From: an uncultured archaeon
Lineage (GTDB): Archaea > Iainarchaeota > Iainarchaeia > Iainarchaeales > JAAZKV01
Assembly (NCBI GenBank): GCA_964549775.1
Contig: CAZJVN010000001.1
Span: 21,028 to 85,027 of the forward strand
Direction: 5' to 3'
Length of the DNA: 64,000 nucleotides
Below are positions 45,139 to 63,316 of this stretch, piece by piece (position 1 is the first letter of the stretch; every line of letters begins with the position of its first letter). The notes under the pieces were generated by a model. It saw only the letters and a list, made by a program, of their open reading frames with translations, was not told where the DNA came from and searched no databases. The translations under genes and the position numbers were made by a program.

Positions 45139-46062
45139 TTAAAACAAAGTGTCGAATATTTTTTTACCGTTTGATTCTTCTAAGTATTTCCATCTTTCGT
45201 CAACATATTTTTGTATTTTTTCAACAAGATCGGGAGTCAAATGTTTGAATCTTCCTTGCATCATCAAGTATTGTTCAACTGGTTTTTTTTCTGCTGGAGT
45301 GTAATTTAATTTCATTACCCCATTTTCAATTTCATATAATGGATAAACAGTTGTGTCTTGTGCTATTCTTGATAAATCAATTACAATTGAGGAATCAATT
45401 TTCCATCCAGGAATGCATGGAACAAATACTGAAATAAATGAGGGCCCATCAGTGTTGAGTGCTTTTTGTACTTTGTTTTTTAAATCAAATAAATTTGATA
45501 CGCTTGCAGTTGCAACATATTTTGCTCCGTGTGCTGCAATAATATAAGGTAAAGGTTTTTTTGGTTGAGTTTTTCCATGAATTACACTTCCATTTGGGCT
45601 TGTTGTTGTTGCAGCGTAAGGAAAAGTTGCTCCGCTTCTTTGTATTCCTGTATTTTGGTAAGCTTCATTGTCTGTTGCTATGTAAAGTATTTTGTGTCCT
45701 CGTTCTACAGCTCCGCTTATTGCTCCAAAGCCAATATCAAACATTGCTCCATCTCCACCAATTGCGATTACATTTGTTTTTGTATTTCCTTTTGATAAAA
45801 GCGATGCTTTTACTCCACTTGCAACAGCTGCTGCATTTTCAAATGCGCAGTGCACCCAAGGTACTTCCCATGCTGATTCTGGATAAGGGGTTGAAACTAC
45901 TTCCATACACCCAGTAGCCATTACAATCATTGTGTCTGCCCCTGCAGCTTTTAGTATGTGTCTTATTGCTAGTGCTTCTCCACATCCAGCACAAGCTCTG
46001 TGTCCGCTTGCAAAATATTCTTTTTCGTCTAAACCCAAAATTACCATAATCATCAATTCCAT
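45139..46062 (-). CDS. porB: Pyruvate:ferredoxin oxidoreductase beta subunit (TPP-binding)
   Basis: CAGCGEA.., TPP motif IAIGGDGAMFDIGFGAISGAVERGHKILYIATDNEAYQNTG. Confidence 0.85.
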   Translation of the reverse strand: MELMIMVILGLDEKEYFASGHRACAGCGEALAIRHILKAAGADTMIVMATGCMEVVSTPYPESAWEVPWVHCAFENAAAVASGVKASLLSKGNTKTNVIAIGGDGAMFDIGFGAISGAVERGHKILYIATDNEAYQNTGIQRSGATFPYAATTTSPNGSVIHGKTQPKKPLPYIIAAHGAKYVATASVSNLFDLKNKVQKALNTDGPSFISVFVPCIPGWKIDSSIVIDLSRIAQDTTVYPLYEIENGVMKLNYTPAEKKPVEQYLMMQGRFKHLTPDLVEKIQKYVDERWKYLEESNGKKIFDTLF

Positions 46063-46079
46063 TTTTGTTTTTTAAAAAA

Positions 46080-47234
46080 TTATTTTAACCAAACTCCTTC
46101 TTGTCCTTTTTCAATTATTTCAAATGCTTTTTTTATTCTTGTTCGATCAATATCTCTCCCACCAAGTCCCGCAATAAATCCAGTCACTTTTACTTTTTCT
46201 TCTTTTAGTGCAGCCTTGATGTCAGTACATAATGGCCCTTCATATCCAATTGAAACGTGTCTATCTATTACCCCTAAATTTTTTAATTTTTTTGTTGCAG
46301 AAATTATTTCTTCTTTTGGAAAGGGTCTCATTGATTTTATTCTAATTATTCCTGCTTTTTTTCCAGATTTTTGTAATTCTTCAAGAACCATTCTTGCAGT
46401 TCCAGTTACTCCACCAACTGTAACAAGAGCATATTCTGCATCTTTCATTTCTATTAACTCAATTAATCCGCCACCATATTCTCTTCCAAATTCTTTTGCA
46501 AATTCTTCATGAACTTTTTGTATTTCCTCTTTAGCTTCACTCATTGCATTTTGTTCTATTTCTTTAAATTCAAAGTAAGTGTTTGGTTGAGCAAATGCTC
46601 CAAAAGTTTTTGGGTTTTTTACATCTAAAAAATGTTCAGGGGTGTATTCTGGCAAAAATGAATCTACTTTTTCGCTAGTTTCAATTATCACTGGCTCGTA
46701 CACGTGGGTTAGAGAAAATCCATCCATGCAAACCATTACTGGGAGTAATACATTTTTTTTCTCTGCAATTTTGTAAGCCATTATTGTTGTGTCAAATGCT
46801 TCTTGTACATTTTCGCAGTAAAGTTGTATCCATCCTTGGTCTTTTTCACTCATTGTGTCAGAGTGATCGTTCCAAATATTTAGTGGGCCTGATAGTGCTC
46901 TATTTGCTACTACCATTACTGCAGGCATTCTTGATGCTGAAACAATTGGAATTATTTCATGCATTAGTGCAAGACCTTGTGAGGCTGTTGCAGTAAATGC
47001 TCTTGATCCTGCCGCGTACGCCCCATAAAGTGCACTAATTGCAGAGTGTTCACTTTCGACATGAATTAATTGAGCGTCAATTTCTCCATTAGCAATATAT
47101 TCTGATAATTTTTCTGGAATTAATGTACTTGGAGTGATTGGGTACATTGGTAAAACTTTTGGTCTACAAAGTTTTACTGCATTAGCAACTGCTTCTGAAC
47201 CAGACATAACTTTTGTTTCACTCATAAAAATCAC
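46080..47234 (-). CDS. porA: Pyruvate:ferredoxin oxidoreductase alpha subunit
   Basis: 384 aa. N-terminal ..MSGSEAVANAVKLCRPKV..YPITPST.. typical of PorA/KorA. Confidence 0.85.
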   Translation of the reverse strand: MIFMSETKVMSGSEAVANAVKLCRPKVLPMYPITPSTLIPEKLSEYIANGEIDAQLIHVESEHSAISALYGAYAAGSRAFTATASQGLALMHEIIPIVSASRMPAVMVVANRALSGPLNIWNDHSDTMSEKDQGWIQLYCENVQEAFDTTIMAYKIAEKKNVLLPVMVCMDGFSLTHVYEPVIIETSEKVDSFLPEYTPEHFLDVKNPKTFGAFAQPNTYFEFKEIEQNAMSEAKEEIQKVHEEFAKEFGREYGGGLIELIEMKDAEYALVTVGGVTGTARMVLEELQKSGKKAGIIRIKSMRPFPKEEIISATKKLKNLGVIDRHVSIGYEGPLCTDIKAALKEEKVKVTGFIAGLGGRDIDRTRIKKAFEIIEKGQEGVWLK

Positions 47235-47270
47235 TATTTTTATTTCCCCAAATTAATTTATTCAAATATT

Positions 47271-47603
47271 TTATTTTTCTTCAACCTTATATGCAATGCA
47301 TTTTACTGGGCATTCTTTTGCACAAATTAAACATCCTTTACAATATTCATAATTTACTTGAAATTTTCCGTCTTTGTCTTTATAGATTGCACCGTCAGGA
47401 CAATTTAACCAGCATTTTCCACATTTTATACATTTTGCTTGATCAATTTCTGGTTTAAATGTTCTCCAATCCCCAGTTTTGTATTTCTTTGATGAGCCTG
47501 CTTCAAGTACTGTTGCTCCAAGGTTTAGTATTATCCCTGAAGAAGTTTTCTCAACTTTTGAAACTTCTTTTTTGTTGTCCTTTTTTTCAACCATAAAATT
47601 CAC
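47271..47603 (-). CDS. porD: Pyruvate:ferredoxin oxidoreductase delta subunit (2x[4Fe-4S] ferredoxin)
   Basis: Two CxxCxxCxxxCP motifs (CIKCGKCWLNCP; CKGCLICAKECP). Confidence 0.8.
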   Translation of the reverse strand: MNFMVEKKDNKKEVSKVEKTSSGIILNLGATVLEAGSSKKYKTGDWRTFKPEIDQAKCIKCGKCWLNCPDGAIYKDKDGKFQVNYEYCKGCLICAKECPVKCIAYKVEEK

Positions 47604-47626
47604 TTTTTTTATTTACCAAAAATTAT

Positions 47627-48172
47627 TTATTTTTTTAACGAGTCTTCATAAACTTGTTTTATTGCAGACAAATTTTTTTCAAGCATTGTTCCTTTTGAAC
47701 CCATTTGTTGTTTGATTGCATTTTCTAGGGACTCTATTGTTACTTCTTTTGTTAATGCACTAAATGCTCCAAGTGCAGCAATATTTACAAAAGGTTTTCC
47801 TATTTTACTTATTGCAATTGCTGAAATATCTACACACTTTATTTTTGCTTTTGTATTTAATTTAAATTCTTCCGGTTTTTTATGAGAATTAATTATTATT
47901 AAATCACTAATATTTTCAGTTAATCCGTTTAGAAGTGTTGCATCAAGCACTATTGCATAATTTGCGTCATAAACTTGTTCTCTAAGAGTAATTTTTTTCT
48001 CATCAATTCTTGCATAACTTCTTACGGGGGCCCCAGTTCTTTCTACTCCAAAATTTGGAAAAGCTTGAGAATGTTTTTTGTCAAAGAACGCTGCTATCGC
48101 TATTATTTGTGAACTTGTAACAGCTCCTTGCCCCCCTCTTCCTAGTACTATTATTTGTTTCATTTTTTGCAT
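47627..48172 (-). CDS. porG: Pyruvate:ferredoxin oxidoreductase gamma subunit
   Basis: 181 aa. ..IVLGRGGQGAVTSSQI.. (GxGGQG) motif of POR gamma. First gene of porGDAB. Confidence 0.8.
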   Translation of the reverse strand: MQKMKQIIVLGRGGQGAVTSSQIIAIAAFFDKKHSQAFPNFGVERTGAPVRSYARIDEKKITLREQVYDANYAIVLDATLLNGLTENISDLIIINSHKKPEEFKLNTKAKIKCVDISAIAISKIGKPFVNIAALGAFSALTKEVTIESLENAIKQQMGSKGTMLEKNLSAIKQVYEDSLKK

Positions 48173-48291
48173 CTCAATTTGTTTAACTTAATAAAAAGAA
48201 AATATCAACAAACCTTTAAAAATTAAACTAACGAACAAGACTTCGTCAATTGTACTATGCTTTTATTTTTTTAAATTTATAAAAAAAATAA

Positions 48292-49092
48292 TTATAACTT
48301 AATTTTTGTAGAAATTAATTCTTTTCCAAGTAGTGCTTTTTCTAAATTTCCTTTTGTAAATAAATTAAATATTTGTGCTTCGCTTCCATTTAGTTGTTCT
48401 GCTAATTTTTCTAGTTTTCCTTTCATCCCACCAGTTACATCAACTGAATTTGATTCGCTCGCCATTTTTATTACTTCATTAAAATTTTCTTTATTAATTT
48501 CTTTTATTAACTTTGCAGCAGGATTAATTTTTGGGTCAGCAGTATAAATTCCATTCACATCAGTCCCTAATAGTATTTTGTCAGGTTTCATTAATTTTGT
48601 TATTTGTGCAATTGCTGTATCTCCACTCATTACACTCCATTTTAGTGTTCTGTCTTTTACCATTATTCCTGTTGTTATTGGAATCTCTCCTCCACGCAAT
48701 GCTTTTTCATACTCTTCTATTTCATAAGTTATTACTTTTTTGTTATCTTGTTTACAAACCCAATAACCTGGTATGTGTCTTGTTTTTAGTTTTTGTTTTT
48801 CAAGTGTTTCTATTACTTGGTCAGCAACATAATCGCAATCTTTAATTGTTTTTTCAGTCCCTTCTTCTTGCTTTTTTGTTTTTATTCCATCATTTAAGTC
48901 ATATTCTTTTACATTTGTGTGACCAAATGGACCAACCCCACAAATAATAATTAAATTAAAATCTCTTTCTTTTAGCGCGAATGCAATTTCTTTTGCTGCA
49001 TCATCTATCACAGCAATATTCATTTCAAATTTGTTGTCAGCTTTTTTGGTTATTGAAGAACCACCAAGTTTTAATAAAATTAATTCTTTCAT
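48292..49092 (-). CDS. ipk: Isopentenyl phosphate kinase (IPK; amino-acid-kinase fold)
   Basis: 266 aa. ..LLKLGGSSITKK.. and ..ICGVGPFGH.. match IPK. Confidence 0.8.
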   Translation of the reverse strand: MKELILLKLGGSSITKKADNKFEMNIAVIDDAAKEIAFALKERDFNLIIICGVGPFGHTNVKEYDLNDGIKTKKQEEGTEKTIKDCDYVADQVIETLEKQKLKTRHIPGYWVCKQDNKKVITYEIEEYEKALRGGEIPITTGIMVKDRTLKWSVMSGDTAIAQITKLMKPDKILLGTDVNGIYTADPKINPAAKLIKEINKENFNEVIKMASESNSVDVTGGMKGKLEKLAEQLNGSEAQIFNLFTKGNLEKALLGKELISTKIKL

Positions 49093-49122
49093 CCACCCAC
49101 CAAATTTAATTTAAAAAAATAG

Positions 49123-49515
49123 TTATTCTAAAATTATTTTTGCGCTAGTCGCATTAACAATTACTTTTTGTCCGTTTTTTATTTTTGAAATATCAATTTT
49201 GTCTACACATGGAATTTCCGAAATAATTGCCCCCACTGCAACTATTGTTTCGCATTCTTTATTTATTAATGCGATTGGTGCTGTTCCTTGTTTTTTCATT
49301 CTGTAAAGCGCGTAACTTCCAACAGTTGAACCTTTTCCTTGTGGGAAAACTAAAATTTTTCCACTAATACTTTTTCCTTCAAGTTCGTGTCCTTTTTCTG
49401 TAACTACTCCGTTCGCAGGATCTACTCCTCCAAAGAAACTTATTCCTTGTGTGGTGACAAGTGCTTCCCCTTCTGCATTCCCTTTACAAATTTTTCTTCC
49501 AATCATTTCAACCAT
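49123..49515 (-). CDS. AcnX-type small subunit (DUF126 swivel domain), inferred phosphomevalonate dehydratase small subunit
   Basis: About 130 aa. G-rich core ..GGVDPANGVV..GKILVFPQGKGSTVGSYALYRM.. matches DUF126. Adjacent to the DUF521 gene. Confidence 0.7.
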   Translation of the reverse strand: MVEMIGRKICKGNAEGEALVTTQGISFFGGVDPANGVVTEKGHELEGKSISGKILVFPQGKGSTVGSYALYRMKKQGTAPIALINKECETIVAVGAIISEIPCVDKIDISKIKNGQKVIVNATSAKIILE

Positions 49516-49553
49516 AAAATTCACTTTTTTTATTTACCAAAAATTAATTTAAT

Positions 49554-50729
49554 TTATTTACATGCCTCTTCAACTAACTTTTCTAAAGGAAGAATTTTTG
49601 TTTTTGATTGATTTTTTGAGTATGCGTAGTAGCACCCTTTTGCCGAGTCTGTTGCAAGGCATTTGAATCTTCCTTTTATTGGAGCCACTACACAACAAGT
49701 GTCTGCTGCAAATTTTGCTCCAGCTGCTTCAATTATTTTAGAGTACCCTGCGGTGTCAGCTATTCTTTTTGTTGGTCTTGCTGTAGTTATCCAAAATTCT
49801 TTTGTAACTTTTTTTCCTTTTAAAAGTTCTGCCACTTTTGCTATTTCATTTATACTTGCGTGTGGGCAACCAATACTTACAAAATCCACTTCACAATCAT
49901 CCATTGTCATTTCTTTTAATGCTTTATCAATATCTTCTCTTATTACTATCATTTCTTCTTTGGGAGTAGGAGTTTTGTTTGGAGTTATTCCTTTTATGTG
50001 GAAAATTGCTGCACCCCCATAAGTTGCAATACTTGCTGAAAAAGATTTTAGTTCTTCAATTGTAGCTTCTTTTATTCCTATAATTAAAACTGGTTTTGCT
50101 TTTACTTTTTCCCCAATTACTTTCCCAAGGGCTCCAAATTCGTTTGTTCCTTTTATTTTTGCTTTTAATTTTACTTTTATTTGTGCATTTCTATTTTCAT
50201 CTAAATGCATTCCATAAAGCGGGGTCTTTCCAGTTAATGCACTTGCAAGTGCACTTGGTCCACCTTCTCTATTTGTTTTTGCTCCAAGAACTGAATTTGC
50301 ATACGCTACTGCGCTACTTTCACTCCAAGCAATGTGTTGACCAAAGTGAGGATTGTTTCCAATTAAGTATGGGGTACAAGTACAAGTTGGTAGTACTCCC
50401 ATTTTTGTAAATGCGTCTATTACTAATTTTTGTTTTACTGCAAAATCTTCACTTATTCCAAGTGCTTGGTAATTTTCTAAATCCATTCCTGCAGGGTTTA
50501 ATGTTGTTAATACTCTCACTTTTCCATCTTTTGCTAAGTCATCTAAAAATTCTAGCCCAGCGTCTCCTAAATTGTCATAACTTACTCCTGCAATTTGTAC
50601 ACTAGTTACATCGACTAAATTCTTTGCCCCATAAATTTCTCCTAAGGCGACAAGTATTTCCATACTTTTTCTTAGCGCGGGTCCGTTTTTTCCTTCAAGC
50701 ATTTTTTGTTCGGCTTTTGTTAATTCCAT
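49554..50729 (-). CDS. AcnX-type large subunit (DUF521, aconitase-X), inferred phosphomevalonate dehydratase large subunit
   Basis: 391 aa, Cys-containing aconitase-like core (..TCTCTPY.., ..SIGCPHAS..). Genomic context between the UbiD-like decarboxylase and IPK. Confidence 0.75.
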   Translation of the reverse strand: MELTKAEQKMLEGKNGPALRKSMEILVALGEIYGAKNLVDVTSVQIAGVSYDNLGDAGLEFLDDLAKDGKVRVLTTLNPAGMDLENYQALGISEDFAVKQKLVIDAFTKMGVLPTCTCTPYLIGNNPHFGQHIAWSESSAVAYANSVLGAKTNREGGPSALASALTGKTPLYGMHLDENRNAQIKVKLKAKIKGTNEFGALGKVIGEKVKAKPVLIIGIKEATIEELKSFSASIATYGGAAIFHIKGITPNKTPTPKEEMIVIREDIDKALKEMTMDDCEVDFVSIGCPHASINEIAKVAELLKGKKVTKEFWITTARPTKRIADTAGYSKIIEAAGAKFAADTCCVVAPIKGRFKCLATDSAKGCYYAYSKNQSKTKILPLEKLVEEACK

Positions 50730-50774
50730 TTTTTCACCAATTCAATTTTTAAAAACCATCATTAAATTTATTTT

Positions 50775-52049
50775 CTATAAATAATCTTTTATGTTATATT
50801 TTGGAAATTCGGTTCTTGTCATTTTTGCAACTTTGTCTAGTCTCATTGTTAAATCAAATCCTGCTTTTGCTGTTTCTCTTGTTATTTGGTCTGCACTTGC
50901 ATCAAGTGAAGATCCTTTTTGTTTTGTGAATAAATAAAAGTTTTTGTCCGCTTGGAAACGTGTAGCCATTGCCCACTCTACTTCTAAAGGGTCATAAATA
51001 TTTATGTCTTTATCCACGATGAAAAAATGTTTTCCTGATGTGTGTCCTTTCATTGCTGCATCAATTGCTTTTTTCCCATCTTCTTCATTTTGTTTATTAA
51101 TTTTTACAATCACGTGAAACCATGAGCTTCCGCCAGGATTAACACTCACGTCAATTACATCTACCCCTGCTTTTTTTACACAATCAAATACTGTTGGTTC
51201 TCTTGGCATCCCCATTAGAATTTTATGTTCAAATCCTCCTGGTAAGAGTGCGTGGTAAATATAATTTGGTCTTACATAAATTTTGTCAACTGTAAAAACT
51301 GGTTCTTGTCTCACTATATCGCTTGTTCCTGTTAAATCAACAAATGATCCTTCAGCATGTTTTTCATTTAGTGATAAATTTCCTTCCATTATTATTTCTG
51401 CGTCAGAGGGAAGTATTGCGTCAAAAGTTTTTGCTTTAATTACTTCAATCGGTTTAATTGAATTGGCAATTTCAAGTTCATTTACTCCTAAAGGTGGTGC
51501 CATTGCCGCAGCTAAAGCAGTTTCTCCTCCAATTCCAATACAATATGCTGCTCGCATTCCCCCATTATTTTTTTTCAACAACTCCATTGTATTTCTTTCA
51601 AGGATTCTAAGCGCAATTTTATTTTTTCCAATAATCATTCCTCTGTGATAACAAACATTTTGACCAACTACTGAATCTTTTACTATAATAATTCCACTTG
51701 AAATATATGCTCCCCCATCTTTTGAGGTGTGCGTTAAAATTGGTAATTTTTCTAAATCTACTTCAATTTCAGTATGATCGGTCGAATTAACTTCTTTTGG
51801 TTTTGTGGGGGCATTTAGTGCTTTAGTCATTATTGGTACAAGATCTTTTACCTCGCAACTTAAGTATTTTGCTACTTTTTCTTTTGAAGCGAAAACATTT
51901 GCAACTATTTTATTTTTTGATTCTTTTACATTTTCAAAAATTATGCTTTTGTCTCCAGCGGAGTAAATTATTCCACTCGCTTCTAAATTTTTTGAAACAG
52001 GCTTTGTTATTGTATAGTCCGCTTTTGTTACAAATTCTCTAAAACTCAT
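50775..52049 (-). CDS. UbiD-family decarboxylase, inferred trans-anhydromevalonate-5-phosphate decarboxylase
   Basis: About 425 aa UbiD fold (shorter than canonical UbiD), immediately downstream of UbiX. Context within the mevalonate operon. Confidence 0.7.
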   Translation of the reverse strand: MSFREFVTKADYTITKPVSKNLEASGIIYSAGDKSIIFENVKESKNKIVANVFASKEKVAKYLSCEVKDLVPIMTKALNAPTKPKEVNSTDHTEIEVDLEKLPILTHTSKDGGAYISSGIIIVKDSVVGQNVCYHRGMIIGKNKIALRILERNTMELLKKNNGGMRAAYCIGIGGETALAAAMAPPLGVNELEIANSIKPIEVIKAKTFDAILPSDAEIIMEGNLSLNEKHAEGSFVDLTGTSDIVRQEPVFTVDKIYVRPNYIYHALLPGGFEHKILMGMPREPTVFDCVKKAGVDVIDVSVNPGGSSWFHVIVKINKQNEEDGKKAIDAAMKGHTSGKHFFIVDKDINIYDPLEVEWAMATRFQADKNFYLFTKQKGSSLDASADQITRETAKAGFDLTMRLDKVAKMTRTEFPKYNIKDYL

Positions 52050-52071
52050 AAAAATCACCTTTAAACTAACA

Positions 52072-52629: not shown

Positions 52630-52639
52630 AAAAATAATT

Positions 52640-55531: not shown

Positions 55532-55806
55532 TTTTTTTCACCTAATGAAATAAAAATATATGAAATTACTGGCATAATTAATAACATTATGTAATAGTTA
55601 ACTACTTGATTGATTGACGCACAATAATACTCACAAGAAGCAAATAATATTAACCAAGAATAATTTTGTTCACAAACAAATCCTGCAGGGACAACTCCAC
55701 AATATGTGAATAAGGATAATAAAACAAATAAAATTATCTCAACTATAACAATCCCCACAAAGACGAATGCTTTATTTTTTGTAATATTAAAATTCATAAT
55801 CATCAA
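55528..55806 (-). CDS. Small 3-TM membrane protein (92 aa) with Cys pairs, between HMGCS and thiolase
   Basis: Fills the 280-nt HMGCS-thiolase gap exactly, 4-nt ATGA overlap with thiolase start. Hydrophobic helices plus YCGVVPAGFVCEQ..SCEYYCAS. A chance 92-codon ORF is unlikely in DNA this AT-rich. Confidence 0.45.
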   Translation of the reverse strand: MMIMNFNITKNKAFVFVGIVIVEIILFVLLSLFTYCGVVPAGFVCEQNYSWLILFASCEYYCASINQVVNYYIMLLIMPVISYIFISLGEKK

Positions 55807-55810
55807 ATCC

Positions 55811-56860
55811 TTAATGTATTAACTCCATGTGTGATTCGTATTCTGGGTAGGTTAAGTATTCTTTTCTTTTTACATAGTCCTCTGTTGTTTTTGCTTTTTT
55901 TTGCGCAGCAGTGATTTTATCTGTTGCAGTAAAAATAAATGAATCGCTTCCAGATCCTGATCCATAAGATGTCACTAAAATTTTGTCGCCTGGTTTTGCA
56001 ATATCAAGTACACAAGTTAAACCAAGTATTGAACTTCCAGAGTAAGTGTTTCCTATTTTTGTTACAATTAATCCTGGATTAATTTGTTCTTTTGTTACCC
56101 CAAACATTTTTGCTACTCTAAGTGGAAATTTTCCGTTCGGCATGTGGAACACTACATATTTAAAATCAGTAATTTTCATTTTTGTTTTTTCTAAGATATT
56201 TTTTGTTGCATTTACTACGTGTTTAAAATATGCGGGTTCCCCAGTGAATCTCCCTGCATGACTTGGATATGGTTCTAGTGCCCTTCTCCAAAAATCTGGA
56301 GTATCTGATGTAAATGAAAGTGTTGCATCAAGTGTTGCAACTGCATCTTTGTTTTCTCCAATTATAAATGCTGCTCCGCCAGCGGCTGCAGAGTATTCTA
56401 GCGCGTTTCCTGGTTCGGCTTGACTAGTATCTGAACCAATACTTAAACCGTATTTTATCATTTTTGAATCAACTAGCCCTGCGTTTATTTGAATTGTTGC
56501 ACTTCCTGCTTTGCATGCAAACTGAGTGTCAAGAGCCGTGTAATTATTTCCAATATCAAGTGCTTCTCCAACAATTGAAGAAGTTGGTTTTACTGCATAA
56601 GGAGGAGATTCACTCCCAACATACACTGCTCCAATTTCTTTTCTGTTAATATTTGCTCTTAGTAATGCATTTCTTGCTGCAGCCACTGCAATAGTTGCTG
56701 TGTCCTCGTCTTTTCCTGGGACACTCTTTTCAACTAACCCAAGTCCGTTTTTTATTGATTCGGGTGTAGTATGTTGTACTTTTGCTATTTCTTCTACAGT
56801 TATTCTGTATTTTGGAATGTATGCTCCCCAACCAATTATTCCTGCCATGATATTATTCAC
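55811..56860 (-). CDS. Hydroxymethylglutaryl-CoA synthase (archaeal HMGCS)
   Basis: ..GIIGWGAYIPKYRI.., catalytic Cys context (TQFACKAGS), C-terminal GSGSGSD. Confidence 0.85.
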   Translation of the reverse strand: MNNIMAGIIGWGAYIPKYRITVEEIAKVQHTTPESIKNGLGLVEKSVPGKDEDTATIAVAAARNALLRANINRKEIGAVYVGSESPPYAVKPTSSIVGEALDIGNNYTALDTQFACKAGSATIQINAGLVDSKMIKYGLSIGSDTSQAEPGNALEYSAAAGGAAFIIGENKDAVATLDATLSFTSDTPDFWRRALEPYPSHAGRFTGEPAYFKHVVNATKNILEKTKMKITDFKYVVFHMPNGKFPLRVAKMFGVTKEQINPGLIVTKIGNTYSGSSILGLTCVLDIAKPGDKILVTSYGSGSGSDSFIFTATDKITAAQKKAKTTEDYVKRKEYLTYPEYESHMELIH

Positions 56861-56888
56861 TCTCTTTCGTTTTATAAGTCTAACTTTT

Positions 56889-58187
56889 CTATTTTTTTCT
56901 CAATTTTTTTATTATCTCTTCTGCTTTAGCTTGATTTATTTCTTTTGAAGTGATCATTTCTTCTGCAACTTTGTCAATTTCATTTTCGCTTGCTCCAGCT
57001 CCTGCAGCTAATGCTCGAGCGTGTAACTTCATGTGTCCTTGTTGAATTCCTACTGTTGCAAGTGCTCTTAGTGCGGCAAAATTTTGTGCTAACCCCACGC
57101 ATGCTGCTATGCTTGTTAGTTCTTTTGAATTTTTTACTCCAAGAATTTTTAGTGATAATTGCGCCATGGGGTTTAGTTTTGCTGTTCCTCCAATTGTTGC
57201 AAGAACAATTGGTAATTCTATCTCTCCAACCAAGTCTCCTTTTTTATTTTTATAATATTTGGTTAGTGGAAGATATTTCCCTTTTTCTTTATAAGCCGCA
57301 AAAGAATGTACTCCTGCTTCAACCCCTCTAAAATCATTTCCAGTAGCAATTGTTAGTGCGTCAATTCCATTCATTATTCCTTTGTTATGAGTTGCTGCTC
57401 TAAATGGAGAACTTATTGCAAATTCGTAAGCGTCTAAAATATTTTCAATTATTTGTTCTCCACTTAAACCAAATTGACCGCTTCCTTCTAGTTTTTCTTT
57501 TGTCCAAATTGTACTAGCTCTTGCTTTTCTATGAATTGCAAGATTTGAAATAATTCTAAGAAGTGCTTTTCCTCCAGAAATTTTTTCAACTAAAGGAGTT
57601 ATTTTTTCTGTCATTGTATTTATTGCATTTGCCCCCATTGCATCACGAACATCCACTAATAATTGTAATTCTATCATCTCTCCGCGTGTTGTTTTTAGTA
57701 CCTCTCCTTTTAGGTCACGCGGCCCTCCTCCAAATTTTACTAAAACTGAATCTACTTTTTCTGCTTCTGCCAAAATTTCTTTTTTTGAATCAAGAATTTT
57801 CTTTAATGCACTTTTTGCATTCTTCATTTTTACTAATTGTATTTGTCCTATCATTACTGGTTCATCACTGGATGTGGAAAATCCACTAGATAATTTTGCG
57901 GCGTTACTTGCAGCCGCGACCACACTTGGTTCTTCAAGAACAAATGGAACCAAATATTCTTTTCCATCAATAACAAAATTTGTTGCAATTCCATAAGGTA
58001 GAGAAAATGTACCCACTACATTTTCTATCATTTTGTCTGCGTTAGATAAAGGTAAATTACTTTCTTTAAGTAAAGTGTTTTTTTCTTCAATAGTTAATGC
58101 ATATTCTTTTGATAGAATTTCTTGTCTTTCTTTTATTGTCTTTTTGTAAAATCCATCAAAATTTTTTGAATTCAAATTAATCACCAA
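56889..58187 (-). CDS. hmgA: HMG-CoA reductase (class I, NADPH-dependent)
   Basis: 432 aa. ..DAMGANAINTM.., ..GTIGG.., C-terminal GHMKLHARA. Confidence 0.9.
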   Translation of the reverse strand: MVINLNSKNFDGFYKKTIKERQEILSKEYALTIEEKNTLLKESNLPLSNADKMIENVVGTFSLPYGIATNFVIDGKEYLVPFVLEEPSVVAAASNAAKLSSGFSTSSDEPVMIGQIQLVKMKNAKSALKKILDSKKEILAEAEKVDSVLVKFGGGPRDLKGEVLKTTRGEMIELQLLVDVRDAMGANAINTMTEKITPLVEKISGGKALLRIISNLAIHRKARASTIWTKEKLEGSGQFGLSGEQIIENILDAYEFAISSPFRAATHNKGIMNGIDALTIATGNDFRGVEAGVHSFAAYKEKGKYLPLTKYYKNKKGDLVGEIELPIVLATIGGTAKLNPMAQLSLKILGVKNSKELTSIAACVGLAQNFAALRALATVGIQQGHMKLHARALAAGAGASENEIDKVAEEMITSKEINQAKAEEIIKKLRKK

Positions 58188-58221
58188 AAAAATTTAAAAT
58201 TAAAAACTTCTTTTATAAAAT

Positions 58222-59559
58222 TTATTCTCCGTTTTTTTGTTTATTTTTTTCTAACTCCTGTTCTATTAATTGTCTTTGTTTTGCTTCTGCTTCTGCTTTA
58301 TCTTTTTTATTAAAATAATGGATTATTGATTTTGCAGCGTCTCTTCCTGTGGATATTGCTTCAATCACTGTTTTTGGTCCGTGTACACAATCTCCGCCTG
58401 CAAATAAATTTGGCACAATGGTTTGTTTATTTTTGTTTACTAGTATGCATCCGTCTGGTCCAATTTTTATTACATCTTTTAAAGAATCATTATCATGTTG
58501 TTGCCCAATTGCTACTATTACTTTATCCGCTTCAATTGATCCACTTTCTCCATTTTTATAATATACCTTTTCTACATGTTCTTTTCCTTCAAATTTTTCC
58601 ACTTGAACACCAAAAATAAATTTTACTCCTTCCTCTTCTGCTTCGATATAATCTTTTTCAGTTACTGACTTGTGAGCTTCTTCTTTTGATGCATAAGTTA
58701 TACAAGTTACTTTTCCGCCTAAACGTACTGCACTTCTTGCAGCGTCTATTCCAACATAGCCTGCTCCTATTACAACTACTTTTTCTCCTGGAGAAATCAT
58801 TGGTAGTGAACTTTGATTTAAATTTACTAAAAATTTCATTGCGTTCATTATTCCTTTAAGTTCGCTTCCCTCATTATTTAGCATTTTTGGTTTTCCTACT
58901 CCAGTCCCCATAAATACTACGTCATATTTTTTTACTAGTTCTTCTAAAATATCTGCGTCAATTTTTACGTTGGGTTCAAAGTCTACCCCGAGATCATGTA
59001 ATCCTGATATTTTTCTTGATACTATTTCTTTTGGTAGTCTGAATTCTGGAACTCCATATTTTATTACTCCCCCAAAAGTGTTTGTTCCTTCCATTACGGT
59101 TACATTTGCTCCATAAATTGATAAAAGTGCGGCCACTGTTAATCCACTTGGACCTGAACCTATTACTGCTACTTTTTTTTCATTATTCTTTTCTCGTTTT
59201 GGAAAAATTGTGTTATCCCCAATGTATCTTTCTATTGCTCCAATTGAGATTGGATCTTTTTTTGAATTAAGAATGCAAGCCCCTTCGCATTGTTTTTCAT
59301 GTTGACAAATTCTTCCACAAATACTTGGGAAAAAATTACTTTCTCTTATTATTTCTCCTGCTTCATTAGTGTTTCCTTCTCTAAAGGCTTTAAGAAATGC
59401 GGGAATATTTACTTTTGCGGGGCAACCTTCCACGCATTTTGGTAATTTACATTGAAGACAACGGTTTGCCTCAATTATTGCTTCTTCTTTAGTAAAACCT
59501 AGTTCTACCTCTTTAAAGGAATTTTTTCTTTCATCTAAAGGCAATAGCGGTACTTTCAT
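58222..59559 (-). CDS. GltD/NfnB/SudA-like NAD(P)H-dependent Fe-S flavoprotein (glutamate-synthase small-subunit family)
   Basis: 445 aa. N-terminal 2x[4Fe-4S] Cys clusters (CLQCKLPKCVEGCP; CGRICQHEKQCEGAC), then FAD (VAVIGSGPSG) and NAD(P) (VVVIGAGYVGID) Rossmann motifs. 35 nt upstream of hmgA. Confidence 0.75.
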   Translation of the reverse strand: MKVPLLPLDERKNSFKEVELGFTKEEAIIEANRCLQCKLPKCVEGCPAKVNIPAFLKAFREGNTNEAGEIIRESNFFPSICGRICQHEKQCEGACILNSKKDPISIGAIERYIGDNTIFPKREKNNEKKVAVIGSGPSGLTVAALLSIYGANVTVMEGTNTFGGVIKYGVPEFRLPKEIVSRKISGLHDLGVDFEPNVKIDADILEELVKKYDVVFMGTGVGKPKMLNNEGSELKGIMNAMKFLVNLNQSSLPMISPGEKVVVIGAGYVGIDAARSAVRLGGKVTCITYASKEEAHKSVTEKDYIEAEEEGVKFIFGVQVEKFEGKEHVEKVYYKNGESGSIEADKVIVAIGQQHDNDSLKDVIKIGPDGCILVNKNKQTIVPNLFAGGDCVHGPKTVIEAISTGRDAAKSIIHYFNKKDKAEAEAKQRQLIEQELEKNKQKNGE

Positions 59560-59590
59560 TAATAATCCCTTTTAGTTTTAAAATTTTTAA

Positions 59591-59615
59591 CTAGCCTTTT
59601 TATAAAAAAGGTTAG
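59591..59615. promoter_or_regulatory. Imperfect 25-bp palindrome/hairpin (ctagcctttttataaaaaaggttag) in the putative promoter region of the gltD-like/HMGR operon
   Basis: Read directly. Sits 30-55 nt upstream (minus-strand sense) of the ATG at 59559. A second perfect palindrome CGTCAATTGACG lies at 59682-59693. Confidence 0.25.
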
Positions 59616-59763
59616 CTCACCAACAGTAAGATGAATAAGGGGTTTAAGTATAAAAACCTATCCAAACAACGAAGAGCAAAACGTCAATTGACGAAAGAAA
59701 CTGGTTTTTTGAGCAATGTGGCCTTTTTTTAATAATTATTTGAATTATTTGATCTTTAAAATT

Positions 59764-60363
59764 TTATTTTTCTATTTTTTTGTTTTGTTCTTTTTTTAAA
59801 AGTAGTTTTTTCCAATCAAATAAAAAAAATGCTAAAATTGATACAACCCCTATTATTTCAATTGTTATGATCCAAATAGTTGCGCTCCCTGCGAGAGTTG
59901 TTTCAAGAGAGGTAAATATTTTTTCTGAAGTGAATACCAAAAATAAATAACTTATACTTCTTCCAACAAAAAATCCTGCGATAATTTCTCTTAGCCTTAT
60001 TTTTGTTGTTCCTACTGCAATAAAGAGTGAATTTGAAGGGAAAGGGAGTAGAGAAAAAATAACACTAAAAATAAATTTTTTCCAACTCTTTCCTTTTAAC
60101 TTGTTTCGAATTATCCCCATTTCTTCTTTTTTATCTTGACTTGCTAATTTATAAAAAACTTTTCTTGATAATATCGCAAGTACATATCTTCCGCAAGTCG
60201 AAGCTGTTACCCCTATAAAAATTAAAATAAGCAAATTTTGAGGGTTTGCAATATAAAAATAAGCGAGAACAATCCATGTTGGAGGGGCAAAAACAGGGAC
60301 AACATTTAACCCAAAAATAATTAACCATTCAAAAATTAGTTGTATTAGATCCATAATTATCAA
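59764..60363 (-). CDS. DedA/TVP38-like membrane protein (candidate)
   Basis: 199 aa, about 5 TMs. ..LLPFPSNSLFIAVGTTKIRLREIIAGFFVGRSISY.. resembles the DedA re-entrant loop motifs (conserved R/G). Confidence 0.4.
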   Translation of the reverse strand: MIIMDLIQLIFEWLIIFGLNVVPVFAPPTWIVLAYFYIANPQNLLILIFIGVTASTCGRYVLAILSRKVFYKLASQDKKEEMGIIRNKLKGKSWKKFIFSVIFSLLPFPSNSLFIAVGTTKIRLREIIAGFFVGRSISYLFLVFTSEKIFTSLETTLAGSATIWIITIEIIGVVSILAFFLFDWKKLLLKKEQNKKIEK

Positions 60364-60376
60364 AAAAGTAAACTAA

Positions 60377-61423
60377 TTATTGTTTTAACCAGTCTTTTAA
60401 TTTCCCTAAAACTACATATTCTTGTTTTTGTAGTTGAGAAATATTTTTACACCCTAACAAAAATGAAGTTATTTGCATTTCTTTTTTGAAATTTTCTAAA
60501 TAAGTTATAATTTCTTTTGAACCATTTTTTGTTTGTGCTTTTAAAATTGGTAAAGCATTTCCGACCATGTCTGCTCCAAGCACTATTGCTTTTGTTGCTT
60601 CAAGTCCGTTTCTTATTCCACCTGAAGCAATTATTTTTTTGTTTGTTCCATGTAGCGCGTTTTTTGTTTCAATTATTGATACTGCTGTTGGTATTCCAAT
60701 ATCTCTAAATTCACCACCAAAACTTTTTTTGTGTCGTAAAGAATCTACTCTTGTCCAACTTGTTCCGCCCGCTCCTTGTGTATCAATTGCAGAAATTTTT
60801 GTTTCACGTAACATCATTGCGGTTTCATAACTTACTCCGTGTCCAACTTCTTTTACATAAACTGGTACACTTAGTGTGTCAGAATATTCTATAATTTTTT
60901 CTACCACTCCTGAAAAGTCTAAATTTCCTTCAGGTTGCATTGCTTCTTGTGCTGCATTAATATGGATTGCAAGAGCATTTGCTTCTATTGCAGAAAGCGC
61001 ACTATCCACCTCTTTTGGATCATATTCTTTTAATTGCGCTGCACCTAAGTTTCCTGAAATAAAAATATCAGGAGCCACATCACGAACAAAATAAGTTTCT
61101 GTGAGTGAAGGTTGCTCAAGCATTGCTCTCATGCTTCCAAGACCCATCCCCACTCCTACTTCTTGAGCCGCAAGTGCAATATCTAAATTCACTTTTTTTG
61201 ATACTTGCGCTCCGCCAGTAATTGCTGAAACTAAAAATGGAAAAGAAAACTTTTTACCCAAAAATTCTGTAGACAAATTAATGTCAGAAAAGTTTATTTG
61301 TGGTAAAGCTAAGTAATTTAGTTCGATAAATTCAAGCAAGGTTGTTTTTTCTTTAAAGGAGACATCTTTTTTTGAACAAAGATCTAAGTGTTCTTTTTTT
61401 CTTTTTTCTATTTGAGAAATCAT
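60377..61423 (-). CDS. fni: Isopentenyl-diphosphate delta-isomerase type 2 (FMN-dependent, IDI-2)
   Basis: 348 aa TIM barrel. ..KKEHLDLC.., ..SAITGG.., ..ASGGIRNGLEATKAIVLGADMVG... Confidence 0.85.
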   Translation of the reverse strand: MISQIEKRKKEHLDLCSKKDVSFKEKTTLLEFIELNYLALPQINFSDINLSTEFLGKKFSFPFLVSAITGGAQVSKKVNLDIALAAQEVGVGMGLGSMRAMLEQPSLTETYFVRDVAPDIFISGNLGAAQLKEYDPKEVDSALSAIEANALAIHINAAQEAMQPEGNLDFSGVVEKIIEYSDTLSVPVYVKEVGHGVSYETAMMLRETKISAIDTQGAGGTSWTRVDSLRHKKSFGGEFRDIGIPTAVSIIETKNALHGTNKKIIASGGIRNGLEATKAIVLGADMVGNALPILKAQTKNGSKEIITYLENFKKEMQITSFLLGCKNISQLQKQEYVVLGKLKDWLKQ

Positions 61424-61449
61424 AAAATCACTTAAATAAATTTACTAAA

Positions 61450-62238
61450 TTATATTCTTCTTCTTTCTTCATTAATCATTCTTGAGAATTCCCCATATTT
61501 TTCACCAATTTCTTCTTGTATAATTTTTCCTATAGCGTCTTGCATTGCGATAAAAACGAAATGATTTGTAAAAGAAACTAATTTTGGAGAAGGGGTCGAT
61601 TTTGGATTAATTACTAATTGAGCTTTTGTTATTTCTGCAATTAATGATTCGTTTGCAGGATTTTTTAGCATAAGTACAAGAGAAGGATCACTTTTGTTTC
61701 TTGTTTTTCCATCAAAAGCTTCAATAAATAAATTAATTACTCCGTGGTTATTTGAAAATAATCTAACAATTAAAGGTTTATTTTTTTTTGTAAAAGAATG
61801 AAACTCCTCAACCACCTCTACTGGTGCGATTCCTCTCGCTTTTGCTAAAATTGAAGCAGCTTTTCTTAATCGAAATAAATAAAGAATATTTGTTAACTTT
61901 GTTCCCCTAAAACCAAGTCCTAATAAAACTTTTTTTCGAGCATTCATTACTTGTTCATTTTTTTGAACAAACGCTTTTCCTACAAGTTCTTTTACCTCTC
62001 CAAAAGCAGGGGTTTGGGTTATGAAAGCTTCTTTTCTATTTTTTTCTTTTAATTCTCTTTTCTTTGCTTCGACTTCTTTAAGTAAACTTAGATTTATTTT
62101 TTCTCTAACTTCCTTTCCTTTTTTTTGAGAAATAGTTATTATTGTATCATCTTTTGAAGCGTTTCTTATTTTTATCCTTGAAGTTGGATTAGTTTTTGGT
62201 TTTTTGTAAACTGGCATAAAATCACATTTTTCTTTCAA
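61450..62238 (-). CDS. Conserved hypothetical protein (about 255-262 aa) embedded between GGPP synthase and IDI-2
   Basis: Basic N-terminus, no motif recognised (..GIAPVEVVEEFHSF..FIEAFDGKTRNKSDPSLVLMLKNP..). Likely ATG at 62217 (MPVYKK) giving a 4-nt gap to GGPPS. Confidence 0.5.
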   Translation of the reverse strand: MKEKCDFMPVYKKPKTNPTSRIKIRNASKDDTIITISQKKGKEVREKINLSLLKEVEAKKRELKEKNRKEAFITQTPAFGEVKELVGKAFVQKNEQVMNARKKVLLGLGFRGTKLTNILYLFRLRKAASILAKARGIAPVEVVEEFHSFTKKNKPLIVRLFSNNHGVINLFIEAFDGKTRNKSDPSLVLMLKNPANESLIAEITKAQLVINPKSTPSPKLVSFTNHFVFIAMQDAIGKIIQEEIGEKYGEFSRMINEERRRI

Positions 62239-63316
62239 CTAAATATTCTGCAAATTTTTGTAACATTATTTTTGCATTGCTTTTTGGTAAAGTTTTGTCT
62301 AGTTTTTTCCAAGCAGTTTCAACTAATTTTTCTGCTTTCTTTTTTGAATATTTTATTCCATCATATTTATTTATTAGGTCTAAAGCTTCTTGTAATATTT
62401 TTTCATCAGTGGCGTGAGAGTCAAGGATTTCTATTAATCTTTTTTTATCTTCTTCACTTGCTACTTGTAGAGTTCTTATTACAATTAGGGTTCTTTTTCC
62501 TTCATGTATATCTCCACAAATACTTCCTTTTCCTTCTTTAAATTTGCTTTCAGTTAATTCTAGTATGTCATCTTGTATTTGAAATCCTACTCCTACAATT
62601 TGCCCAAAATCGGCCAACGCATTTTGTTGACTCTTGTTTGCTCCCCCAATTATTGCTCCAAGTTCGCAAGCAAATCTAGTCAATACTCCAGTTTTACATA
62701 AACACATGTTCAAGTATTGTTTTTCGTTCGGAGTGTATCCTCCTTTGTGCCAAGCAATGTCCCATGCTTGTCCACTCGATACTCTTAACATTTCTGTTAA
62801 ATACAAGTCTTGTATTGCTGCTTTCTTTTTTTCACTTAATTTAAATTCATTTGTAATTATTTTTGCCATTGGCCAATAATACATTATTGTTCCAGTATTC
62901 ACTGCTGTATCTACTCCAAATATTTTGTGTACACAAGCTTTTCCCCTTCTTGCAATTGAATCATCTTCCACATCATCGCACATTAATGTTCCGTTGTGAA
63001 TGATTTCAACTATTGGAGCTAATTTTTTTGCTTTATCATATTCTCCTCCAACTGCTTCTGCTGAAAGACAAGCTAAAACGGGTCTAAATCTTTTTCCCCC
63101 TCTGTCGAGTAAATCCCAAATTGGTTCATTTACTCCTTTTGTGTAAGCAACTAAGTCAAGTTCAAAAACGGTTTTTCCAAGAACACTTTCTATCCATTTT
63201 TTATTAGCTGTTCTTGGGATGTAATTTTCTATTTCTTTTTCTATTTCTGGGACTTTTAATTTTAAAAATTCTTTAATCTCCATTTTTGTTTCTTTATCAG
63301 TTACTTTATATCCCAA
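62222..63316 (-). CDS. Short-chain (E)-polyprenyl diphosphate synthase, probable geranylgeranyl diphosphate synthase
   Basis: FARM DDVEDDSIARRG and SARM GFQIQDDILE. 364 aa. Confidence 0.8.
   Translation of the reverse strand: MGYKVTDKETKMEIKEFLKLKVPEIEKEIENYIPRTANKKWIESVLGKTVFELDLVAYTKGVNEPIWDLLDRGGKRFRPVLACLSAEAVGGEYDKAKKLAPIVEIIHNGTLMCDDVEDDSIARRGKACVHKIFGVDTAVNTGTIMYYWPMAKIITNEFKLSEKKKAAIQDLYLTEMLRVSSGQAWDIAWHKGGYTPNEKQYLNMCLCKTGVLTRFACELGAIIGGANKSQQNALADFGQIVGVGFQIQDDILELTESKFKEGKGSICGDIHEGKRTLIVIRTLQVASEEDKKRLIEILDSHATDEKILQEALDLINKYDGIKYSKKKAEKLVETAWKKLDKTLPKSNAKIMLQKFAEYLVERKM

Follow-up and report, generated by a model that had tools for sequence, protein, structure and literature searches.

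A probable pyruvate-to-isoprenoid gene module in an Iainarchaeia archaeon: contiguous mevalonate genes, an NfnB-like flavoprotein gene and a shared operator-like motif

The archaeal trans-anhydromevalonate phosphate pathway is known from Aeropyrum pernix and Methanosarcina mazei (Hayakawa et al. 2018, as cited in PMC10040528 and PMC8184944). In their treatment of gene order, published surveys describe archaeal mevalonate (MVA) genes as usually clustered (Zhu et al. 2024, PMC11052028) and as syntenic with a trans-prenyl synthase gene, class II HMG-CoA reductase (HMGR) being frequent in DPANN (Hoshino & Gaucher 2018, PMC6107057). Here we analyse a 64-kb stretch of DNA (contig CAZJVN010000001.1; hereafter the window, whose numbering gives all positions), which holds the isoprenoid-precursor locus of a low-GC DPANN archaeon of Iainarchaeia (Diapherotrites) type. 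Its minus strand carries an array of genes leading from pyruvate to prenyl diphosphates, including porGDAB for a 2-oxoacid:ferredoxin oxidoreductase (POR). We consider it probable that the region is a co-regulated pyruvate-to-isoprenoid module, with a complete archaeal mevalonate route in four transcription units, a recruited NfnB-like flavoprotein and POR, and a shared operator. The array is real and its labels are sound, and its core is a kind of cluster already described. Two features look new, namely the gene for an NfnB-like Fe-S flavoprotein beside HMGR and a shared motif tying the POR genes to the pathway. The pairing of the NfnB-like gene with HMGR is the most interesting lead.

Gene content and order of the array

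Twenty-three consecutive minus-strand open reading frames (ORFs) span 44513-63849 by ORF listing and translation; the last belongs to a RecJ-like gene that extends beyond the window end, with its C-terminal part inside. The order of transcription is GGPPS-like, unk262, IDI-2, DedA/VTT-like, GltD-like, HMGR, HMGCS, a 92-aa transmembrane (TM) ORF, thiolase, a 67-aa ORF and DUF35, followed by MVK, UbiX, UbiD-like, AcnX/DUF521, DUF126, IPK, porG, porD, porA, porB and Ham1. The order, strand and coordinates given in the initial annotation match the ORF listing exactly. Its claim of a complete AcnX/UbiD mevalonate route with IDI-2, a prenyl synthase and a four-subunit oxidoreductase also holds, as Pfam and NCBIfam support every family label, with refinements for the GltD-like protein, GGPPS, DedA and POR that are given below. 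The GC content of the window is uniform (0.29-0.36), and horizontal transfer of the block was rejected, as composition gives no sign of it. The initial annotation had proposed synteny in related genomes as a check for an assembly artefact, an explanation that we reject because identical gene order recurs in contigs from other samples, at least nine of them, each assembled independently. The genes of the pathway proper are:

62222-63316, minus strand: short-chain trans-prenyl diphosphate synthase (IdsA/GGPPS-like), start TTG 63316 or ATG 63283; PF00348, 1.5e-63
60377-61423, minus strand: IDI-2, type 2 isopentenyl diphosphate (IPP):dimethylallyl diphosphate (DMAPP) isomerase; TIGR02151 equivalog, 376 bits (cut-off 281)
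56889-58187, minus strand: class II HMG-CoA reductase (HMGR); TIGR00532, 439 bits (cut-off 260)
55811-56848, minus strand: archaeal HMG-CoA synthase (HMGCS); NF003274, 525 bits (cut-off 244); TIGR00748, 490 bits
54377-55531, minus strand: acetoacetyl-CoA thiolase, archaeal type; NF004720, 513 bits (cut-off 420)
53690-54094, minus strand: DUF35/OB-fold scaffold protein of the thiolase-HMGCS complex; PF01796 and PF12172
52640-53584, minus strand: mevalonate kinase (MVK); TIGR00549 equivalog, 241 bits (cut-off 163)
52072-52629, minus strand: UbiX flavin prenyltransferase, which makes prFMN; NF004685, 217 bits (cut-off 188); TIGR00421, 214 bits
50775-52049, minus strand: UbiD-family decarboxylase, putative anhydromevalonate phosphate decarboxylase (AMPD); TIGR00148, 299 bits (cut-off 245)
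49554-50729, minus strand: phosphomevalonate dehydratase (PMDh) large subunit (AcnX type II, DUF521); PF04412, 3.5e-146; 7cnr_A, 343 bits
49123-49515, minus strand: PMDh small subunit (DUF126 swivel domain); PF01989, 2.8e-35; NF003046, 180 bits (cut-off 163); 7cnr_B, 144 bits
48292-49092, minus strand: isopentenyl phosphate kinase (IPK); NF040647 equivalog, 169 bits (cut-off 120)

Equivalog cut-offs were reached by MVK, IPK, archaeal HMGCS, class II HMGR, IDI-2 and DUF126, and subfamily cut-offs by UbiX, UbiD and thiolase, the last of which scores 476 bits against the acetyl-CoA acetyltransferase equivalog, below its cut-off of 600. HMGR belongs to class II, with 389 bits to P. mevalonii HMGR (1qax) versus 52 bits to the class I model TIGR00533. 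Genes for PMK, DMD, PMD or M3K are absent from the 64-kb window, and no further GHMP-family ORF is present there among ORFs of at least 70 aa, in agreement with the initial remark that neither a phosphomevalonate kinase nor a diphosphomevalonate decarboxylase was seen. The label GGPPS stands as to the short-chain prenyl diphosphate synthase family (Polyprenyl_synt) and not as to a C20 product. The best NCBIfam models are IdsA_Meth at 243 bits (cut-off 468) and GGPP_syn at 192 bits (cut-off 500), and we assign no product chain length because every equivalog score falls below its cut-off. The residues ahead of the first DDxxD are IHNGTLMCDD, with Gly at the position where many archaeal GGPPS presumably have an aromatic residue.

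The lower pathway is where the window most resembles A. pernix and M. mazei, with MVK, a heterodimeric three-Cys AcnX type II, a UbiD-type decarboxylase with UbiX, and IPK, and with no PMK or DMD within the window. The large AcnX subunit scores 343 bits to 7cnr_A (TkAcnX, type II) versus 190 bits to type I AcnX, the small subunit likewise matches type II, and the two lie in adjacent ORFs as in the split type II architecture. In A. pernix the [4Fe-4S] ligands of PMDh are Cys122, Cys297 and Cys356, with no Cys at the type I "site C" (PMC10040528). All three are found in the window's large subunit as C118 (TCTPY), C288 (GCPHAS) and C345 (DTC), together with Val (position 347) at site C and E138 at the conserved ApPMDh Glu E145. 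In the UbiD-like protein, N131, R136, E233 and D238 align with N150, R155, E261 and the catalytic E266 of AnInD, and the Arg/Glu/Asp catalytic network is kept. These scores, Cys ligands and residues do not bear out the outcome that the initial annotation had raised, in which DUF521, DUF126 and UbiD-like would group with clades of other function. Orthologues of the UbiD-like protein with 44-50% identity adjoin AcnX and MVK in Asgard, Nitrososphaeria and Aenigmatarchaeota contigs, and context and orthology argue strongly that it is an AMPD.

Unlike the A. pernix and M. mazei systems, the predicted pathway of the window has the genes for all its steps side by side on a single strand, those for thiolase/HMGCS/DUF35, HMGR, IDI-2 and the prenyl synthase included, and its HMGR is class II, not class I. 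Thiolase, HMGCS and DUF35 reportedly form an archaeal channeling complex, said to have been described by Voegeli and co-workers in 2018. The trio is adjacent and co-directional in the window and in every related locus. Unlike in that complex, the window's lineage interleaves a Cys-rich two-TM ORF and a 67-aa charged ORF, and HMGR and the NfnB-like gene precede the trio in one predicted unit.

We compared all array proteins by tblastn with 83 related loci (contigs with L-numbers). A collinear core of ten genes (HMGR-HMGCS-thiolase-DUF35-MVK-UbiX-UbiD-AcnXL-AcnXS-IPK), at times followed by IDI-2, recurs across Iainarchaeia and is kept down to 48-54% UbiD identity (L003/L022, L015, L024, L031). 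The order is GGPPS-MVK-UbiD-AcnX-UbiX...IPK-IDI2 in Aenigmatarchaeota and HMGCS-HMGR-UbiD-AcnX-MVK-IPK-IDI2 in Loki-type Asgard contigs. The initial view that these genes are normally scattered was thus overstated, given this core, the large clusters in Asgard and Aenigmatarchaeota, and the clustering, prenyl synthase included, reported in the gene-order parts of the published surveys (PMC6107057, PMC11052028), because of which we regard the core of the finding as known biology. In those same parts, a POR operon, an NfnB/GltD-like gene and a shared promoter motif are not mentioned as members of the cluster. In L144 (3668-17171), the frame GGPPS-unk-IDI2-NfnB-like-HMGR-HMGCS-thiolase-DUF35-MVK is kept and then continues with MDD and a GHMP kinase of the classical route, which is a modular swap of the lower mevalonate pathway inside one cluster frame.

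Two side observations concern these relatives. The prenyl synthase gene of L144 (819 aa) bears Hint/intein and LAGLIDADG matches. UbiD-like genes 43-47% identical to the window's are also found on bacteria-labelled contigs (L050, L051, L062, L071, L074, L076, L081, L083), which carry the labels of Anaerolineae/Brevefilum, Nanopelagicaceae and Thermodesulfobacteriota metagenome-assembled genomes; some adjoin AcnX, and L050 has a full Asgard-like set. This points either to mis-binned contigs or to an archaeal-type route in some bacteria.

The NfnB-like gene beside HMG-CoA reductase

The predicted upper-pathway unit begins with the gene initially labelled GltD-like:

58222-59559, minus strand: NfnB/SudA-type Fe-S flavoprotein; Fer4_20 and Pyr_redox_2

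By PDB scores the protein resembles the NfnB/SudA large subunit more than it does GltD. Its best matches are the Pyrococcus Nfn large subunits (5vj7, 304 bits; 5jca_L, 301 bits) and T. maritima NfnB (4ylf_B, 283 bits), with GltD at 225 bits. With NfnSL/NfnAB (P. furiosus 5jca, 5vj7; T. maritima 4ylf) it shares the architecture of the large subunit: eight Cys in two [4Fe-4S] cluster motifs, an FAD site (GSGPSG at 134) and an NAD(P)H site (GAGYVG at 265). It differs from them in having no adjacent small subunit and in its conserved partner gene, which is HMGR. Among the 24 loci with room downstream, 23 have the NfnB-like gene directly 5' of class II HMGR on the same strand, over a range from 87% to 43% identity; in L141 they abut with a gap of 0 nt, and in L143 they overlap. 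The pairing persists where the lower pathway is of the classical MVK-MDD-PMK type (e.g., L144).

Canonical Nfn bifurcation is unlikely because no gene for a small NfnA/S subunit is adjacent in the window or in relatives, and we suggest that the protein may be a non-bifurcating ferredoxin:NAD(P)+ oxidoreductase feeding HMGR. A more far-reaching proposal would make it a dedicated DPANN component of the upper mevalonate pathway, passing electrons from POR-reduced ferredoxin to HMGR directly or via NAD(P)H in a self-contained redox module under one factor at TCGTCAATTGACGA. In such a module, three pyruvate would yield six electrons, of which HMGR would use four, leaving two for later chain saturation, and the module would represent the first defined regulon for archaeal isoprenoid synthesis. 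We hold this proposal tentatively and, on balance, doubt it.

Several points weigh against the functional assignments made so far. The small NfnA/S subunit (PyrK-like, FAD and [2Fe-2S]) was not found in the 64-kb window or beside the NfnB-like gene in L139, L141, L143, L144 and L145. A search for papers connecting NfnB-like proteins to HMG-CoA reductase gave no relevant result, and it brought up no biochemical precedent for the proposed role. In HMGR, the residue that aligns with P. mevalonii D146 is Asp, which we take to favour NADH and not the NADPH that canonical NfnB handles. As for the UbiD-like protein, its identity as AMPD is argued from context and orthology because the PDB holds no experimentally characterised AMPD sequence and no AMPD-specific NCBIfam model is matched.

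How far do these points favour other readings of the two proteins? The NfnB-like gene could encode the small subunit of an ordinary glutamate synthase, or some generic NADPH oxidoreductase, and play no part in isoprenoid synthesis. Homologues are indeed labelled "glutamate synthase small chain" in source databases, and among NCBIfam models TIGR01316 gltA ranks first with 364 bits, short of its cut-off of 472 (TIGR01317 and TIGR01318 also stay below theirs). We nevertheless find this very unlikely, since no GltB large subunit occurs in the window or in any related locus, Nfn large subunits outscore GltD, the place next to HMGR is held across such divergent loci, and the gene heads the unit with the predicted operator. 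Lower still, and highly improbable in our judgement, stands the idea that AcnX and the UbiD-like protein serve another pathway, such as hydroxyproline dehydration or aromatic acid decarboxylation, leaving the lower mevalonate pathway incomplete. UbiD functions are diverse, the nearest solved structure of the UbiD-like protein is the furandicarboxylate decarboxylase HmfF (192 bits), and its NCBIfam name stops at family level. Against this stand the PMDh-specific Cys triad, the type II score far above type I, the separate AcnX subunits, the co-location of UbiX, UbiD, both AcnX subunits, MVK and IPK in several archaeal phyla, and the lack of any alternative lower-pathway enzyme in the 64-kb window. 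In addition, what L144 exchanges for MDD and a GHMP kinase is exactly the UbiX/UbiD/AcnX/IPK block, as would be expected of functionally equivalent modules.

Some further genes near these loci concern cofactors and reduction. In L142 a NAD kinase-like gene (1239-2036) separates HMGR from the NfnB-like gene, and another is divergent beside HMGR in L003 (3660-4496), which hints at a nicotinamide cofactor supply organised around HMGR. In L139 (1450-2937), a geranylgeranyl reductase gene and an adjacent gene for a 61-aa two-[4Fe-4S] ferredoxin lie ~6 kb upstream of the RecJ-GGPPS end; the window ends short of the equivalent position.

The shared upstream motif, transcription units and the POR operon

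A near-palindromic motif, TCGTCAATTGACGA, stands ~20-35 nt upstream of TATA-like boxes both before the unit of the NfnB-like gene and HMGR and before porG. Its consensus is TCGTCAAT-N3-ACGA. The predicted promoter elements are:

59648-59693, minus strand: predicted upper-pathway promoter module, with the perfect palindrome CGTCAATTGACG (59682-59693), TTCGTTG (59667-59673) and the BRE/TATA-like GGATAGGTTTTTATAC (59648-59663)
53618-53632, minus strand: predicted TATA-like box GGCACTTTTATAAAC in the 105-nt gap before MVK
48213-48255, minus strand: predicted porG promoter region, with GTACAATTGACGAAG (48241-48255, operator inverted), then TTCGTTAG and the TATA-like TTTAATTTTTAAAGG (48213-48227)

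The 9-mer CAATTGACG has four matches at three sites in the 64-kb window versus 0.12 expected, and two of these sites coincide with the array's two largest internal gaps. The motif is not present in the 105-nt gap before MVK. Taken alone, the exact 12-mer palindrome with up to two mismatches is not enriched (2 matches versus 0.8 expected), and for this reason the evidence for the motif is its position, its conservation in orthologous promoters and a census of the degenerate pattern. Across aligned orthologous promoters, eight of them of the upper-pathway unit, no columns are invariant except those of the motif and the TATA box. A metagenome scan with a strict promoter pattern, too strict to recover porG-type promoters, gave 54 matches, 21 of them directly 5' of GltD-like or HMGCS homologues, and several further matches at contig ends had the same consensus. 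The scan also returned a repeat family, AAGCGTCAATACACGC...GGTTTTTATAAAA, from higher-GC organisms, which we disregarded as unrelated. The degenerate 12-mer CG[TG]CAA[TA]NNNCG has 24 sites in 432 kb (20 Iainarchaeia-type sequences), and 19 of these lie within 260 nt upstream of GltD (8), HMGCS (6, including L001), HMGR (3) or porG (2). In deep relatives that lack the GltD-like gene (L003, L015, L031) the motif precedes HMGR, and in L144 it precedes the GltD-like gene. The porG copy is found in L004, L005, L006, L012 and L013, and more weakly in L010.

We infer from this distribution that the motif is a predicted operator for one dimeric transcription factor, which would co-regulate the upper-pathway unit and POR. 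Control of POR in the window's sub-clade would then come about either by co-transcription, as in L141, or by a second operator copy, as in the window and others. Candidates for the factor would include the helix-turn-helix (HTH) protein encoded at 37893-38402 in the window and an HTH_3 protein encoded 5' of the GltD-like gene in L145. A separate observation concerns the leader: the distance from the TATA-like box to the ATG of the NfnB-like gene is ~89 nt in the window (59560-59647) and 60-150 nt in relatives, which implies a long 5' leader. In the window this leader holds the inverted repeat CCTTTTTTATAAAAAGG, with no Rfam match at gathering thresholds.

The array probably consists of four transcription units and not one. 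Unit 1 would comprise GGPPS-unk-IDI2-DedA; unit 2, NfnB-like-HMGR-HMGCS-tm92-thiolase-s67-DUF35; unit 3, MVK-UbiX-UbiD-AcnXL-AcnXS-IPK; and unit 4, porGDAB-Ham1. Gaps between array genes are mostly -17 to 45 nt (counted from the first ATG), and four are larger: 104-137 nt from RecJ to GGPPS, 204 nt from DedA to the NfnB-like gene (59560-59763), 105 nt from DUF35 to MVK (53585-53689) and 119 nt from IPK to porG (48173-48291). Four units are likelier because each of these 104-204 nt gaps holds a BRE/TATA-like box and because the IPK stop is followed at once by an oligo-T (T8) run (48275-48291). For the same reasons, the "single supercluster" of the initial annotation holds as one co-directional array and not as one transcription unit.

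The POR genes and the last gene of the array are:

47627-48172, minus strand: 2-oxoacid:ferredoxin oxidoreductase gamma (porG); PF01558; POR gamma model, 188 bits, below the cut-off of 225; passes the subfamily model TIGR02175
47271-47594, minus strand: porD (delta), ferredoxin-like, two [4Fe-4S] motifs; Fer4; PorD_Arch, 113 bits (cut-off 120); passes TIGR02179
46080-47225, minus strand: porA (alpha); POR_N and PFOR_II; PorA_Arch, 513 bits (cut-off 550); VOR alpha, 341 bits
45139-46062, minus strand: porB (beta), TPP-binding; PF02775; PorB, 392 bits (cut-off 405); VorB, 317 bits
44513-45070, minus strand: Ham1/ITPase-family NTP pyrophosphatase, 3' end of the array; PF01725, 2e-44

The four-subunit domain set is complete (POR_N/PFOR_II, TPP_enzyme_C, POR, Fer4), and porD has Cys at 55, 58, 61, 65, 85, 88, 91 and 95 in two CxxCxxCxxxC motifs. 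The operon resembles the four-subunit archaeal POR of Pyrococcus and methanogens in its gamma-delta-alpha-beta set and order and in its TPP and ferredoxin-like domains. It differs in being attached 3' of a mevalonate array and carrying that array's upstream motif, and in scoring below the equivalog cut-offs. In the window and eight relatives (L001, L004, L005, L006, L010, L012, L013, L141) porGDAB follows IPK; L008 and L009 are uninformative on this point. L141 is the tightest, running from the GltD-like gene through porB and an HD-domain gene with gaps of at most 39 nt. Ham1, probably outside the pathway, follows porB in L001, L004 and L006, and in L141 the HD-domain gene takes that place.

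In the module that we propose, POR would convert pyruvate to acetyl-CoA and reduced ferredoxin, and thiolase, HMGCS and DUF35 would lead on to HMG-CoA. Class II HMGR would reduce HMG-CoA with NAD(P)H, which the NfnB-like protein would regenerate from reduced ferredoxin. MVK, PMDh, AMPD (with prFMN from UbiX) and IPK would then produce IPP, from which IDI-2 and the prenyl synthase would make DMAPP and prenyl diphosphates. One dimeric transcription factor would act on the operator motif at the upper-pathway unit and at porG.

This arrangement has to be weighed against a whole 19-kb polycistronic super-operon and against a POR that is only a neighbour, and some of the evidence runs counter to it. 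The four-unit model is a prediction, because archaeal TATA-like strings are common in a 30% GC genome. The array lies on one strand throughout, its gaps are mostly no larger than 45 nt, Shine-Dalgarno-like GGTGA/GGGGG motifs precede many internal genes, and L141 is nearly without intergenic space from the GltD-like gene to porB, all as a super-operon would have it. We still regard one transcript as unlikely, given the four long gaps of the window, each with a BRE/TATA-like box and two with the operator motif, the oligo-T run after IPK, and opposite-strand genes inside the arrays of relatives (a Zip transporter and an unknown gene in L001 and L142, YjbQ in L003).

A weightier alternative, one that we doubt and keep in play, makes POR a central catabolic enzyme (pyruvate to acetyl-CoA to acetate and ATP via a nearby synthetase) that merely sits in an inherited gene order, with no dedicated link to the pathway. 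Models for POR score best for all four subunits, yet each falls just under its pyruvate-specific NCBIfam equivalog cut-off, which is why pyruvate specificity is proposed here and not asserted. The initial annotation's "fusion" is real in the window and the eight relatives, and it is lineage-restricted: in L142 (78% UbiD identity) IPK is followed by ilv genes, and no deeper relative (L002, L003, L015, L024 and L031 among them) has porGDAB after IPK. Because unrelated neighbours, namely Ham1, D-aminoacyl-tRNA deacylase (D-Tyr-tRNA deacylase) and ADP-forming acetyl-CoA synthetase, are co-conserved with POR in the same relatives, adjacency alone is weak evidence for a functional link, and part of the linkage could be inherited gene order. 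The 119-nt gap with its T8 run between IPK and porG fits a mere neighbour as well. The porG motif copies are more degenerate, with one perfect half-site, the window copy is inverted relative to those of relatives, and L001 is without it; the inversion is tolerable, because a palindrome bound by a dimer would accept either orientation. What speaks for a dedicated link is that the upper-pathway motif recurs 5' of porG in the window and in five relatives, independent support that adjacency does not give, and that in L141 porG starts 10 nt after IPK in a packed array beginning at the operator-bearing GltD promoter. The co-regulated module thus remains our preferred reading.

Acetyl-CoA metabolism continues beyond the array. 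An ADP-forming acetyl-CoA synthetase (CoA_binding, Succ_CoA_lig and ATP-grasp_5) is encoded at 38524-40569 on the plus strand, ~4 kb from the array, preceded by a winged-helix helix-turn-helix protein (37893-38402, plus strand), and in L001 and L141, too, the synthetase is encoded a short way outside the array. Together with POR it would give pyruvate to acetate and ATP, and the region could be viewed as an "acetyl-CoA island".

Small ORFs, other genes of the window and significance

Four ORFs of the array have no assigned place in the pathway:

61450-62217, minus strand: unk262, orphan 255-aa protein, 4 nt from the GGPPS stop or overlapping it
59764-60354, minus strand: DedA/VTT-like membrane protein; PF09335, E 9.7e-7, 29.7 bits, under the gathering score of 33.9
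55528-55806, minus strand: small Cys-rich two-TM ORF (92 aa), 4-nt overlap with the thiolase start; no family match
54132-54335, minus strand: 67-aa highly charged protein between thiolase and DUF35; no family match

For unk262 there is no Pfam or NCBIfam match, and six homologues were found among 5.8e9 proteins; those with known context sit between GGPPS and IDI-2 (L139/L140). Its AF2 model is all-alpha (pLDDT 69.5), with a basic disordered N-terminus, and matches no fold in the PDB. The gene is translationally coupled to the prenyl synthase gene. L141 has in this slot a 216-aa ORF that is unrelated to unk262, showing no detectable similarity to it, and whose N-terminus is basic as well. The DedA/VTT-like protein is 82% identical to the L139 orthologue of the same slot. 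Two-TM ORFs analogous to that of the window are present in L141 (6669-6926, 85 aa, also with a 4-nt overlap with the thiolase start) and L001 (8167-8430, 87 aa); they share 37% identity, and their similarity to the window ORF is weak (23%, E 0.009). The 67-aa ORF has counterparts of 41-48% identity at this position in L001, L142 and L008, which share the motif AKKWRE...PLVKR, and by these orthologues it is a real gene. A ~42-nt stretch (repeat family D1) is almost identical 5' of porD (47585-47626) and of the AcnX small subunit (49506-49547), taking in the Shine-Dalgarno-like region and the first codons, ATGGTTGAA, and may be a copied translation-initiation region or a gene-conversion tract.

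The window also carries genes for Orc1/Cdc6, PolD DP1 and DP2, SepF, SecDF, DnaK/DnaJ/GrpE and ribosomal proteins. Rfam at gathering thresholds gave no match over the whole window, with no tRNA or rRNA marker and no known riboswitch. The nearest homologues of the UbiD-like and GltD-like proteins are labelled Candidatus Iainarchaeum or Diapherotrites. Three large consecutive plus-strand ORFs (7031-12127, 12158-13858 and 13855-16560; 1698, 566 and 901 aa) have no Pfam match at E <= 0.001 and may be lineage-specific surface or giant proteins, as often in DPANN. Lipid genes are present in the same 64 kb beyond the array, as CDP-archaeol synthase (CarS; 29855-30364, minus strand) stands beside a DUF92 membrane protein (30394-31089, minus strand). 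DUF92 is, as we take it, the family of the plant phytyl-phosphate kinase VTE6, and the window's protein may be a prenyl-phosphate kinase.

The usual view of DPANN archaea is that most of them obtain their lipids from hosts. This lineage keeps a full, compact and apparently regulated route from pyruvate to prenyl diphosphates, with CDP-archaeol synthase in the same window. Should the proposed module fail, what remains is a well-preserved gene cluster of a kind that the literature already describes. If it holds, its operator would offer a handle on the first regulator of archaeal mevalonate genes. The NfnB-like protein would be a candidate electron-supply protein for HMG-CoA reductase in ferredoxin-based anaerobes, and anyone rebuilding the archaeal mevalonate pathway in a heterologous host would find its genes ready-made and co-linear in the array.

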